Source: Nitrospinota bacterium (lineage in GTDB: Bacteria; UBA8248). From it: a stretch of 33,380 nt of DNA. The notes beneath the pieces were generated by a model, which was given only the letters and a program-made list of their open reading frames with translations, was not told the DNA's origin and made no database searches. A program made the position numbers and the translations under genes. Below, piece by piece: positions 1,547-33,380 of the stretch (position 1 is the stretch's first letter; the number at the start of each line of letters is the position of its first letter). The DNA is taken from NCBI GenBank assembly GCA_030754595.1, contig JASLZZ010000123.1, positions 1 to 33,380 on the forward strand, written 5' to 3'.

Positions 1547-1556
1547 GGGGCCAGTT

Positions 1557-1627
1557 TGCTAGGGGTGCCAAGCGGCTGAGAACACACCCTTCGAACCTGA
1601 CCCGGCTAGCACCGGTGTAGGGAAGCG
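1557..1627 (+). ncRNA. TPP riboswitch (THI element)
   Basis: CTAGGGGTGCC...GGCTGAGA...ACACCCTT-GAACCTGA-CCGG...ACCGGTGTAGGGAAG matches the TPP aptamer consensus and lies upstream of thiC. Confidence 0.95.
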
Positions 1628-1789
1628 AATCTCATCTGATTCAACTCCGCTTCGCTTCCCCCGGGTTTCGAGAGAGCGGCGCTTCCAGCGCGGGGTGTTT
1701 GTCCACCTCGGCCCGGAAGGTCTCGGACCGCACAGCATCCCCGGCGCGATCCGCCTCGGCCCCCCGGCGCGGACCGTCAGACGGGATGA

Positions 1790-3580
<1,791 letters not shown>

Positions 3581-4374: not shown

Positions 4375-5547
4375 CTAGCCGCCCGAACCGTTCCAGAAGA
4401 ACGCCGGGTCTTTTTGCTCGCCGTAGCCGAGCCAGCCGTGCATCCTGACGAGGAGGCGGTTGATCCATTTCCAGCGGAATGTAATCAGCCATTTGGCGAT
4501 GGCGTGGTGAAAGCCCTTCCCGTGGTTGAAGGGGCAAACCCGGATGCAGATGCCGCAGTTGGTGCCCACGTGGGCCCAGTAGCGGCGGCAGGACTCGTAG
4601 TTGGCGTACCATTTGAGGACGCCCGGGTTGCTCGAGATGTTGGTGCCCTCGGTGGTGCGCGGGCCCGAGGGGAGCGAGCCCACCGGGCACGAGTCGGCGC
4701 ATTTTTCGCACACCTCGCAGAATTCGATCACCCCGAAGTCGCGCTGGTTCTTCACCGCGCCGAGCGGCATGTCGGTGATGACCTTGCATAAGCGCACCCG
4801 AGGGCCGAACTCGGGCGTGATGGCGGGCCCGAGGCGGCTGGGCTGGGCGAGCCCCGCGTCGATGGCGAGCGGGACGTTGAGCGCCGTGTCGTTCAGCGAG
4901 GGAATCGCCGTGTAGCCCATCGCGCGGATGAACTGCGCCACCGAGCCCGAGAGGGCGGCCATGTTCGAATAGTTGCGGTGGGTTTCGGTCATCATGATGG
5001 CGGTCGGGGCCGTGGCCATCATGTCGTGGTCCATCCCGAGGCCCATGACGATCACCTGGTCGCACCCCTGGGGAAACTCGACGGGCGGGTTCTCCCCTTT
5101 TCCGTCCTCCCCCTTTCCGGGCAGGAAGTGGTTCGAGTAGACCCACCGCTCGTCGAGCGGGGTGAAGCCCACGAGGTCGGCCCCGAGGTAGCGGGCGACG
5201 CGGCGCACTTTGCTCTGAAGCTCGGCCGGGCTCCCCGCTCCGTCGACTTTCAGCTCCTCGGGCACCTCGCGCTCGTTCGAGGTCGAGAGCGGCTCCCAGG
5301 AGGTGAAGCCCGAGTTGGGCCGGTTGATTCCCGTTCCGAACGATGAGACGACGGCCATCGCCCCGGTGTCGAAGGCGAAGTCCAGGTGCCCGAAGCCCCG
5401 GTCTCCTTTCTCGATGTGCCCGGTGATGGCCTGTTTGCTACGCTCGCTGTAATCGTCGAGCGCCGGGTCCCACGCCGAGCGCATGATGACGTTGTTCTTC
5501 TGGTTGAAGCGCCGGTACTCCGGCCCGACCTCGTAGTTGACCGCCAT
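4375..5547 (-). CDS. Reductive dehalogenase (RdhA/PceA-like cobalamin and 2x[4Fe-4S] protein) without Tat signal
   Basis: YLGADLVG..LDERWVYS, FIRAMGY.AIP, PLAIDAGL, ITPEFGPRVRLCKVITDMPL, FCEVCEKCADSCP and C-x10-CGICIRVCP. GGGAG upstream of ATG 5547. Confidence 0.85.
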   Translation of the reverse strand: MAVNYEVGPEYRRFNQKNNVIMRSAWDPALDDYSERSKQAITGHIEKGDRGFGHLDFAFDTGAMAVVSSFGTGINRPNSGFTSWEPLSTSNEREVPEELKVDGAGSPAELQSKVRRVARYLGADLVGFTPLDERWVYSNHFLPGKGEDGKGENPPVEFPQGCDQVIVMGLGMDHDMMATAPTAIMMTETHRNYSNMAALSGSVAQFIRAMGYTAIPSLNDTALNVPLAIDAGLAQPSRLGPAITPEFGPRVRLCKVITDMPLGAVKNQRDFGVIEFCEVCEKCADSCPVGSLPSGPRTTEGTNISSNPGVLKWYANYESCRRYWAHVGTNCGICIRVCPFNHGKGFHHAIAKWLITFRWKWINRLLVRMHGWLGYGEQKDPAFFWNGSGG

Positions 5548-5685
5548 CCCTATCTCCCTCCCGCACACCGCCTAAATTTTTATCGAACAAACCCGTTGAG
5601 CGACGTAATGAGGATATTTTACTCCTGTTTTAGGGAGAGCGCAAAACTCCCCCGCTGGGGAGGCCGGGGGGGGAAGTCTCGAACG

Positions 5686-31754: not shown

Positions 31755-32782
31755 GCCTCCGCCCTCCACTCGTGAACCAGGTCCACGAGATATTTCACGT
31801 TGTCCACCGGCGTCATCGGGAGCACCCCGTGGCCGAGGTTGAAGATGTGGCCCGGCCGCCCGCCCGCCTGCCGAAGAATATCCCCGGCGCGGCGGCGGAT
31901 GGTCTCCCGATCGGCGAGAAGGACGCAGGGGTCCAGGTTCCCCTGAACGGCCACCCGCCCCAGTGCGTCCCAGCTCTCGCCCAGGTTTACCCGCCAGTCG
32001 AGCCCGATCACGTCGCCGCCCGCTTTTTTCTGTTGGTCGAGGAGCGTGGCGGTTCCCGTACCGAAGTGAATGATCGGCGCAGGGCCCGAAATGGCGTCGA
32101 GTAGAAATCGAATGTGCGGAAAGACATATTCGCGGTAATCGGCCGGGCTCAGACAACCCGCCCAACTGTCGAAGATTTGAATCGCCTGCGCGCCCGCATC
32201 GACCTGGCTCCGGACATATCCCACGAGGGAGCGGGCGATCACGCTCATCAGGGCGTGCCACGCACCGGGGTCGCCGTACATCAGCTTCTTCGTCTCGGCG
32301 TAGTTGCGCGAGCCGCCGCCCTCGATCACGTAGGAAGCCAGCGTGAAGGGCGCACCGCAGAAACCGATGAGCGGGGTCTCCGGCCCGAGGGAGGAGCGCG
32401 TTTTTCGGATGGCGTCATAGACGAAAGAGAGGGCCTCGGGCGGGGCCTCCTCGAGGCGATCGACATCCGAGGCGGCGCGGACCGGGTTGCCCAGGACCGG
32501 GCCCTCCCCCTTACCGTAGGTGAGGTCCATCCCCATCGGAACGAGGATGAGAAGAATGTCCGAGAAAATAATGGCGGCGTCGGCCCCGATCCGCTCGACC
32601 GCGGTGACGGTCACCTCGGCGGCGAGGTCGGAGTCCCGGCAGAGATCCATAAAGGGGGTGCGCTCGCGCACCTCGCGATACTCCACCATGTAGCGGCCGG
32701 CCTGCCGCATGAGCCAGACGGGAGTGGTATCCGCCGGCTCGCCCCGGCAGGCCTTCAAGAATGGGGCATCGCCTGGGTTCAT
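31751..32782 (-). CDS. hemE: Uroporphyrinogen decarboxylase
   Basis: PVWLMRQAGRY, DAAIIFSDIL, GAPFTLASY, IQIFDSW, QGNLDP and IFNLGHG. Confidence 0.97.
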   Translation of the reverse strand: MNPGDAPFLKACRGEPADTTPVWLMRQAGRYMVEYREVRERTPFMDLCRDSDLAAEVTVTAVERIGADAAIIFSDILLILVPMGMDLTYGKGEGPVLGNPVRAASDVDRLEEAPPEALSFVYDAIRKTRSSLGPETPLIGFCGAPFTLASYVIEGGGSRNYAETKKLMYGDPGAWHALMSVIARSLVGYVRSQVDAGAQAIQIFDSWAGCLSPADYREYVFPHIRFLLDAISGPAPIIHFGTGTATLLDQQKKAGGDVIGLDWRVNLGESWDALGRVAVQGNLDPCVLLADRETIRRRAGDILRQAGGRPGHIFNLGHGVLPMTPVDNVKYLVDLVHEWRAEA

Positions 32783-32907
32783 CGGATCTATGGCTCCATC
32801 GGTTCAATCGGTAATGGGCACCGGGTATCGAGCAAAGAGCGCCGGGCATCGAACATCAAGCAACGGGCACCGGAAAAACTACCACCCTTTCGCTCGCGAT
32901 CCAAAAG

Positions 32908-32940
32908 CGAAAAACCCCCAGCCCCGAAGGGCTGGGGGTT
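32908..32940 (-). terminator. Intrinsic terminator
   Basis: Minus strand AACCCCCAGCCC-TTCG-GGGCTGGGGGTTTTT: UUCG tetraloop and U-tract. Confidence 0.85.
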
Positions 32941-33002
32941 ACGGTGAGCTGTTGAGATTCGCCAGGGCGGAGAAACCAGGCAGCTCCCCGGGTTTCTCCT
33001 GC

Positions 33003-33041
33003 CTAGACGGCAGTCACCTCGTCGCTACAGTCTATTCTCAT
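33003..33041 (-). CDS. Candidate 12-aa micro-peptide MRIDCSDEVTAV
   Basis: Preceded by AGAAAGGAGGTGGTC (15-nt SD) and a TTGGCG-17-GATAAT promoter; followed by a hairpin and terminator. Confidence 0.6.
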   Translation of the reverse strand: MRIDCSDEVTAV

Positions 33042-33306
33042 ATATTCGACCACCTCCTTTCTGACGTACCATCAATTATCCGGCACCGGGATCCGCGCGC
33101 CAACAAATATTTCCCGGGGGCGGGGGGAAGGGGCGACGGGCGCGGGAGGCGGATCGCGCTCAGGAGCATCGGGCCGGCGGAGAGTTCACTGGTGAACGAA
33201 AAGCCGGCACGAGCGGGCGGCGGGCTGGGCAGAGCGGCTCCTGCATGGTATACAGCGCAGGCTCTTTTCTAGGGGCCTACTTTTCGATAGCCTGAACCCG
33301 ATGCTC

Positions 33307-33380
33307 GGCGCCATAGCCAAGTGGTAAGGCAGAGGACTGCAAATCCTTTATCCCCGGTTCAAATCCGGGTGGCGCCTCCA
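33307..33380 (+). tRNA. tRNA-Cys (GCA)
   Basis: Acceptor stem GGCGCCA/TGGCGCC, D-loop AAGTGGTAA, anticodon arm GAGGA-CTGCAAA-TCCTT, T-loop GGTTCAAATCC and encoded CCA. Confidence 0.97.

Follow-up and report, generated by a model that had tools for sequence, protein, structure and literature searches.

Ms_IGR-5 is a small RNA (sRNA) of actinobacteria, catalogued in Rfam as RF02471 ("Actinobacteria sRNA Ms_IGR-5"). Its first recovery as an sRNA is credited to Li et al. 2013 in a preprint (bioRxiv 10.1101/2021.12.14.472595), the accessible portions of which place IGR-5 of Mycobacterium smegmatis between MSMEG_5794 and MSMEG_5795, report that it is NAD-capped at its +1 A, and term it "validated but yet uncharacterized". 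Excerpts of other reports name the M. smegmatis RNA ncMSMEG15794c (PMC10454040), describe the validation of an S. lividans homologue by RNA-seq (PMC8079986), treat the S. avermitilis homologue as an sRNA transcription unit (PMC8780764), and mention ribosome-protected reads on the homologues of M. abscessus and M. smegmatis (PMC4974804). No assignment of a function to Ms_IGR-5 was found in the literature searched, most subscription-journal papers being outside its reach. Here we describe an element of about 165 nt on the minus strand of contig JASLZZ010000123.1, a stretch of 33,380 nt that we call the window, which combines an exceptionally long Shine-Dalgarno sequence (SD), an open reading frame (ORF) of 12 codons and an intrinsic terminator. 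By its match to the family model, this element is a homologue of Ms_IGR-5 from outside the actinobacteria, i.e. a new non-actinobacterial member of a known family. We consider it rather probable that it is a stand-alone, single-copy, structured sRNA that acts through the capture of the 30S subunit and through its own translation, with the encoded peptide being incidental.

When the window was scanned with Rfam at gathering thresholds, tRNA-Cys and the thiamine pyrophosphate (TPP) riboswitch were the only families reported, and RF02471 was not among them. A permissive scan returned RF02471 with 43.5 bits (E = 1.7e-8), model positions 1-184 being aligned to 33067..32905. The same model, applied to 41 related genomes, marked 28 places at E <= 1, of which 21 were genuine and 7 spurious by inspection; three of the genuine relatives, from the same genus or the same family as the window, score above the gathering threshold (55.1, 49.5 and 47.5 bits). 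Further actinobacterial and other loci were collected by a motif pattern and then scored on RF02471 (20 loci). The scores descend from Mycobacterium (L029, 176.5 bits) through Micromonospora (L034, 98.5), Streptomyces (L030, 95.2), Kineococcus (L040, 85), Cellulomonas (L087, 66.8) and Acidimicrobiales (L045, 48.8) to a genuine actinobacterial copy in Nocardioides (L036, 41.9), followed by Blastocatellia (L089, 41.0) and a metagenome-assembled genome (MAG) labelled Syntrophobacter (L076, 32.9), and 11 of the 20 loci gave no RF02471 match at E <= 0.01. Because of this spread, the copy in the window appears as one point on a continuum of divergence away from the mycobacterial seed. An earlier note on the window, made from the sequence alone, had held that a match to an already described Rfam family would remove the novelty of the element; the match to RF02471 is full-length and most of the novelty is therefore gone, even though the score stays below the gathering level.

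The window gene and Ms_IGR-5, both of them stand-alone genes, are assembled from the same blocks in the same order, as seen in the model and in multiple alignments: the SD loop, GAGGUGRC, a stop codon 9 nt on, the box GCGAAUCC, the box CAGNCACC and a terminal hairpin. The likeness extends to the 5' part, in which the +1 A is followed by a 4-bp helix, the loop reads GAAAGGAGGUGRUC, the start codon lies 8-10 nt on, and the ORF of about 12 codons ends in GAG GUG RCN NNN NNN stop. On the other hand, the window copy belongs to a phylum of 51 genomes that is not Actinomycetota, and its 43.5 bits remain below the gathering score, which is 45. The register of H2, the helix behind the SD loop, is different, the 3' domain is a plain terminator, and the window copy has no counterpart of the additional hairpin of actinobacteria, in which the loop (GUCC/AUCC) covaries with GGAC/GGAU. 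Finally, the gene in the window's family is divergent from an adjoining tRNA gene.

The distribution of the family was surveyed with R1, a covariance model built from 70 diverse copies, which scores the window copy at 81.6 bits. Of the 51 genomes in the window's phylum, 43 contain one R1 match each and no more; among the 29 with at least 90% completeness and at most 5% contamination, 24 have a copy. Copies are present in 37 of 41 genomes of the window's own family (f1) and in 5 of 7 genomes of the sister family f4, and absent from the single genomes of families f2 and f3 (0/1 each). Since a phylum-wide request for 150 genomes yielded 51 in all, the window's phylum is small and is not Actinomycetota, which comprises far more species. 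None of 14 named control genomes (including Corynebacterium glutamicum, B. subtilis and E. coli) has a match at the family cut-off. A scan of one genome per species found at least 120 stretches with the motif pattern; among the matches listed are Actinomycetota (Actinomycetes, Acidimicrobiia and Thermoleophilia), Acidobacteriota (Terriglobia and Blastocatellia), and single MAGs labelled, as deposited, Zixibacteria, Ignavibacteria, Heliobacteriaceae and Syntrophobacter. Weak pattern matches in Leptospira (L070) and at L125, with 22-23 bits on R1, were not counted as members, and L137 was dismissed as a chance match, with TGG at the stop position and within a coding region. One copy at a contig end (L182, G014:C63:1-300) has its SD region swapped for unrelated sequence, probably by an assembly break. 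The relatives retain the SD, the ORF and the terminator, the combination for which the earlier note had proposed to search.

The secondary structure is supported by covariation, which we assessed from our own pair counts, shuffles, slid partners and mutual information. For 20 copies of the window's phylum, RNAalifold returns the helix H1 (CGUC/GACG), the helix H3 (GGUGACUG / CAG-C-UCACC) and the terminator. In 70 copies from several phyla, the structure composed of H1, H2, H3 and the base of the hairpin P2 is 85.2% paired, with a covariation score of 0.328 as compared to 0.139 +/- 0.007 for shuffled alignments (none of 500 shuffles reaches the observed value) and to at most 0.088 with the partners slid. 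Within this set the pairing of H1 reaches 95.2%, and double-sided changes occur at three of the four pairs, in 34, 25 and 18 sequences. By eye, at least 15 Watson-Crick versions of H1 can be distinguished, e.g. CACG/CGUG, CCAG/CUGG, CGCG/CGCG, CACC/GGUG and GCUG/CAGC. H3 displays the compensatory sets GGUGGCUAC/GUAGCCACC, GGUGACCAC/GUGGUCACC and GGUGGCCAG/CUGGUCACC next to a core, GGUG/CACC, that is invariant in the 70 copies. Mutual information calculated from 100 R1-aligned copies ranks the pairs of H1 and H3 first, with 95-100% Watson-Crick or wobble pairing, and reveals no further long-range pair or pseudoknot between the transcript start and H3 beyond H1, H3 and P2.

H1 and H3 are thus supported both in the window's clade and in actinobacteria; the two groups do not have H2 or the actinobacterial 3' pseudoknot hairpin in common. 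In Actinomycetota this additional hairpin follows H3, and its loop covaries with the H2 strand, GUCC being found in 72 of 79 sequences with GGAC and AUCC in 10 of 13 sequences with GGAU; the loop is an alternative or pseudoknot partner of that strand. In the window RNA the terminator comes directly after H3. According to the modelled fold, the SD occupies a loop of about 12-15 nt between H1 and H2 and the start codon an apical loop, while the 5' end is predicted to pair with codon 7 (H1), codons 8-11 with the 3' CACC box (H3), and the stop codon to open P2. The minimum free energy (MFE) of the window RNA is -72.6 kcal/mol (z = -4.26), lower than in 200 of 200 shuffles. P2 differs in sequence and length from lineage to lineage. 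Of the conserved box that follows it, the MFE fold joins GGCG to the CGUC in codons 11-12 and leaves AAUC(C) unpaired. The terminator is independent of the remaining fold in the MFE and consensus structures, and no alternative anti-terminator pairing was seen, by eye only.

In the window's genome, GGATCACCTCCTTTCT forms the 3' end of the 16S gene; as this tail, and not a generic one, was compared, the pairing over 15 nt with a single G:U that the earlier note had proposed is real for this organism. Four sites in the 3.55-Mb genome carry the 11-mer GAAAGGAGGTG: the SD of the sRNA (SD1), the antisense of the 16S tail, the SD of a 96-codon ORF, and the interior of a long ORF. Apart from the sRNA, the 96-codon ORF, which begins with MAEKFFGKVTHFF (L184, G000:C43:31714-31724), is the one gene preceded by this 11-nt SD.

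An open frame behind the SD is a recurrent feature of the family. In 112 of 125 distinct sequences, an ATG, GTG or TTG located 4-14 nt past the SD opens a frame that runs uninterrupted to the stop; the same test in the other two frames gives 0 and 13. Among the 141 parsed sequences (duplicates included), the start codons are ATG in 74, TTG in 40, GTG in 13 and CTG in 9. The stop position is occupied by TAG in 99, TGA in 13 and TAA in 13 of the distinct sequences, figures in which only the absence of TGG is informative, because the pattern allowed just TRR at this place and TGG appeared solely in the one chance match. In the 21 copies found by the Rfam model, which are free of this bias, the stop codon is TAG or TGA in every case. 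The Acidimicrobiia copies that start with CTG include L045, L053, L060, L081, L102, L132, L146 and L148, and in the Thermoleophilia copies L065, L072, L077, L129 and L136 TTA, ACG or ATA stands where relatives have TTG. It is possible that the very long SD permits near-cognate initiation in such copies; since some sequences lack a usual start codon, canonical translation may not be universal.

The peptide itself is variable in ways that follow the RNA. The ORF encodes 11 to 19 residues across phyla. The residue preceding the E may be R, L, D, G, S, C, P or T, tracking the variant of H1. The fifth residue of the actinobacterial versions may be R, W or G with the nucleotides GGAC unchanged, and T is replaced by M exactly where GGUCC becomes GAUCC. 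In the 23 distinct ORFs of the window's family codon 2 is AAA in 21/23 and codons 5, 8 and 9 are TGT, GAG and GTG in 23/23, with no synonymous variants, and positions 3, 4, 6, 10, 11 and 12 vary in residue, class changes included. The excess of synonymous over non-synonymous change by which a small protein is recognized does not appear in our own codon counts. To judge from these patterns, selection acts on the nucleotides and on the open frame, and not on the peptide. With the start and stop kept and the peptide not, translation itself may be the signal, an idea that can be tested in M. smegmatis or Streptomyces.

The genomic context of the sRNA argues for its independence. The promoter, the RNA and the terminator are conserved as one block, and the element is a stand-alone gene, as the earlier note had favored. 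The same note had also considered a leader or attenuator of the hem operon: the sRNA is co-oriented with hemE and lies about 120 nt upstream of it. Pfam identifies a URO-D family gene (hemE) downstream of the RNA in two loci of the window's genus, the window itself and L007, and in L002, L003 and L005, also of this genus but left out of the Pfam scan, the downstream ORF has 343 codons, the length of hemE. In other genera of f1 the RNA is followed by a gene for a glyoxalase-fold protein, for an amidase or for YtoQ, or by one with no Pfam match, and in f4 by lexA. We therefore rejected the leader, as the downstream gene changes between genera and the link to hemE is limited to the window's own genus. 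The sequence TTGGAT-17-TAGTTT, which had been taken for hemE's own promoter, is indeed present at 32904..32876, but it agrees with the consensus in 6 of 12 positions and is absent from the promoter-scan list. Among 78 flanking ORFs of 39 loci of other phyla (the first half of such loci) there is no universal neighbor gene; the local synteny comprises a THAP4-like heme-binding domain in 3 cases, and PNPOx, HNH and amidohydrolase in 2 cases each.

Some of these neighborhoods are worth recording in their own right. In the actinobacterial loci L029, L041 and L052 the gene after the RNA encodes the THAP4-like heme-binding beta-barrel, and in L029 (Mycobacterium) a gene for a class IV aminotransferase precedes the RNA; that this neighbor and hemE are both heme-related is probably a coincidence. 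The RNAs of f4 (L014, L016, L179-L181) contain a 14-codon ORF with a TTG or ATG start and a TGA stop. In L014 and L016 the RNA is directly upstream of lexA, and a TTGAC box stands right behind the terminator in L014, L016 and L179-L180, with CTTTAC in L181.

Upstream of the sRNA, a divergent tRNA gene is immediately adjacent in 27 of 27 loci of f1 (Ser-GGA in 21, Cys-GCA in 6), in neither of the 2 loci of f4, and in 4 of 60 loci of other phyla. The Cys-GCA neighbors belong to the window's genus and one other. Hence within f1 the partner tRNA has been exchanged with the adjacency to the sRNA retained. The adjacency is lineage synteny and has no link to codons: the idea that the conserved Cys codon is tied to the adjoining tRNA-Cys was abandoned, as most family members reside beside tRNA-Ser(GGA) and still have TGT. 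Beyond tRNA-Cys, two loci of the same genus (L003:1970-3136 on the plus strand and L007:1-735 on the minus strand) contain an ORF with a phage-integrase SAM-like domain, which suggests an integration hot spot adjoining the sRNA locus in same-genus relatives.

All the parts described in the earlier note, i.e. the promoter, the SD, the ATG, the 12-codon ORF, the hairpin at the stop codon and the UUCG terminator, could be located on the minus strand within 33103..32903, together with a second SD-like sequence, GAGGTGA, inside the ORF (33020..33014). Their coordinates are compiled in the table. The promoter (33103..33075) is the sole promoter-like site within 32600..33380, as compared to a mean of 0.2 in shuffled sequences. 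The transcript start was placed from the distance to the -10 hexamer and from the conserved A that opens the alignment, and the spacer between SD1 and the ATG is 6 nt long.

Table. Coordinates of the Ms_IGR-5-like element and of its divergent neighbor in the window
Feature	Position	Strand	Basis and remarks
-35 hexamer TTGGCG	33098..33103	-	promoter scan; relatives have TTGAC
-10 hexamer GATAAT	33075..33080	-	promoter scan; 17-nt spacer to -35
Predicted transcript, ~165 nt	32903..33067	-	from the A at 33067 into the T tract; RF02471 aligns to 33067..32905
Helix H1, 5' strand CGUC	33063..33066	-	covariation; immediately 5' of the SD loop
SD1, DNA AGAAAGGAGGTGGTC = RNA AGAAAGGAGGUGGUC	33048..33062	-	15 nt pairing with own 16S 3' tail, one G:U
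Mini-ORF, 12 codons + TAG, MRIDCSDEVTAV	33003..33041	-	ATG 33041..33039; TAG 33005..33003
Helix H1, 3' strand GACG	33020..33023	-	covariation; codon 7 and first G of GAG
Invariant GAGGUG (SD2, codons 8-9)	33015..33020	-	alignments; 9 nt before the stop codon in every case
Helix H3, 5' strand GGUGACUG	33011..33018	-	covariation and fold
Hairpin P2, GGCAGGAGAAACC...GGTTTCTCCGCC	32966..33003	-	opens at the G of the stop codon
Conserved box GGCGAAUC	32956..32963	-	alignments and MFE fold
Helix H3, 3' strand CAGCUCACC	32943..32951	-	anti-SD-like CACC, one bulged C; covariation and fold
Intrinsic terminator	32903..32940	-	12-bp stem 32940..32913, UUCG loop, then T tract
Divergent neighbor tRNA-Cys(GCA)	33307..33380	+	Rfam; context, outside the RNA

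Sequences corresponding to the element are also present in RNA libraries. Two metatranscriptome libraries yielded contigs of about 150 nt that match the element over 33051..32907 (identical) and over 33045..32897 (from a relative, with 11 differences). Contigs from DNA runs span all 601 bases compared, and those from the RNA libraries give the flanks no cover.

Elsewhere in the window, the TPP riboswitch (64.1 bits, 1551..1640, plus strand) is in its ordinary arrangement, directly upstream of the ThiC gene (1811..3580, plus strand), and an ORF at 4375..5568 on the minus strand shows weak matches to reductive dehalogenase and to a 4Fe-4S double-cluster domain.

We propose the following scenario for the action of the RNA, in line with the suggestion of the earlier note that it binds ribosomes, which stays the favored reading. 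The 30S subunit would dock on the SD loop, where pairing as far as GAUCC or GGUCC would compete with H2. Initiation and the elongation of about 12 codons would then unzip H1, H3 and P2. Once the stop codon has entered the A site, GAGGUG would lie 6 nt upstream of the P-site codon, and because this is an initiation-like spacing, the anti-SD could hold the terminating ribosome. Meanwhile the CACC/AAUCC strand and the 5' end would be set free by the unzipping. The candidate outcomes are the sensing, titration or parking of ribosomes, the control of the RNA's own decay, and the exposure of a seed.

Several observations weigh against this reading. The window copy falls 1.5 bits short of the RF02471 gathering score of 45. 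The depth of the RNA-library contigs is about 3 and carry-over of DNA is possible, so that they are proof of the sequence in such libraries and not of its transcription. H2 is weakly conserved between the clades (86% paired) and is shifted to another register in the clade of the window. Of the 125 distinct sequences, 13 have no ATG, GTG or TTG in frame; among the 141 parsed ones, 9 have CTG at the start position (Acidimicrobiia) and 5, of the Thermoleophilia type, have none of ATG, GTG, TTG and CTG. The conservation of the stop codon across phyla was partly forced by the search pattern, which required TRR, and the E-V of the peptide is invariant, which could reflect a constraint on the peptide that is here inseparable from one on the RNA.

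Other explanations have to be considered on the same evidence. If the 12-residue peptide were the functional product and the RNA structure merely tuned its expression, one could account for the conserved start and stop codons, for the invariant E-V and the Cys that is invariant in the window's own family, and for the very strong SD; yet the conserved codons have no synonymous variants, residues 2-7 and 10-12 switch class in step with RNA pairing, and the length varies between phyla, with most actinobacterial versions devoid of the Cys. We therefore regard a functional peptide, as raised by the earlier note, as improbable, the idea being weakened above all because the residues follow the RNA pairing. 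There is a similarly small chance that the RNA is a decoy that titrates 30S or 70S ribosomes by its 15-nt SD, with no need for productive translation. Such a role would agree with an SD that is complementary to the whole 16S tail and is presented in a loop, with the strong promoter, and with the lack of a canonical start codon in some lineages, but it requires neither the in-frame start present in 112/125 sequences nor a true stop codon always 9 nt past GAGGUG, and a single gene copy would presumably have to be expressed at a ribosome-like level.

The RNA could also be an ordinary base-pairing sRNA with its seed in the AAUCC/CACC region and an incidental ORF. The AAUCC is conserved and unpaired, the CACC is invariant, and the family was originally recovered as an sRNA, according to the accessible part of the preprint (bioRxiv 10.1101/2021.12.14.472595). 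We nonetheless hold this to be unlikely, in view of the frame-specific conservation of start and stop and of the intramolecular pairing of CACC with covariation adjoining it, and no target is known. A leader peptide or attenuator of the hemE-hemH-hemY operon, for which the orientation, the distance and the URO-D genes or 343-codon ORFs of the window's genus speak, is very improbable indeed: the genes downstream in other genera are unrelated, the neighbors in the 39 loci of other phyla are varied, and a strong independent terminator intervenes with no anti-terminator pairing seen by eye.

We thus retain the view of a stand-alone sRNA that captures and is read by ribosomes. It is tempting, and at this point a tentative idea that may well prove wrong, to extend it to all Ms_IGR-5-like RNAs as a multi-phylum, housekeeping-type, ribosome-engaging device, which would be loaded by its complement of the 16S tail, have its nicked helix of about 13 bp unzipped by translation of about 12 codons, and hold the terminating ribosome by the GAGGUG that is hidden behind a CACC mimic. 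If this were true, the RNA would serve to signal or adjust how many ribosomes are free (or how much release factor is available), or would park ribosomes, instead of encoding a product or pairing with mRNAs. Independently of this idea, the design, with a full complement of the anti-SD in a loop, a helix-locked mini-ORF and the invariant GAGGUG/CACC, is far older and more widespread than the "actinobacterial" label implies: most genomes of a small phylum outside the Actinomycetota retain it in one copy, and look-alikes occur in Acidobacteriota, in MAGs labelled Zixibacteria and Ignavibacteria, and in others.

Apart from Ms_IGR-5 itself, three kinds of known systems invite comparison. In dual-function sRNAs such as SgrS/SgrT, RNAIII/hld, SR1/SR1P and Spot 42/SpfP, the peptide is conserved and functional and the pairing region is apart from the ORF. 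The window element resembles them in having its own promoter and terminator and in carrying a small ORF on a small RNA; there is no relation in sequence, however, and its ORF is embedded in conserved helices and its peptide is unconserved. In the trpL / rnTrpL attenuators, a short ORF is followed by a terminator and a small RNA is released (PMC6614838, as far as its accessible text goes). The window element, by contrast, has no conserved downstream operon and no runs of regulatory codons, and inspection by eye revealed no anti-terminator in it. At the prfB frameshift site, an SD-like element holds the ribosome near a stop codon, with a spacing of 3 nt. The window element differs from it in the spacing of 9 nt and in lacking a slippery site and an extended second frame; in both, a sequence resembling an SD precedes a stop codon by a short, constant distance, and the analogy concerns the mechanism alone.

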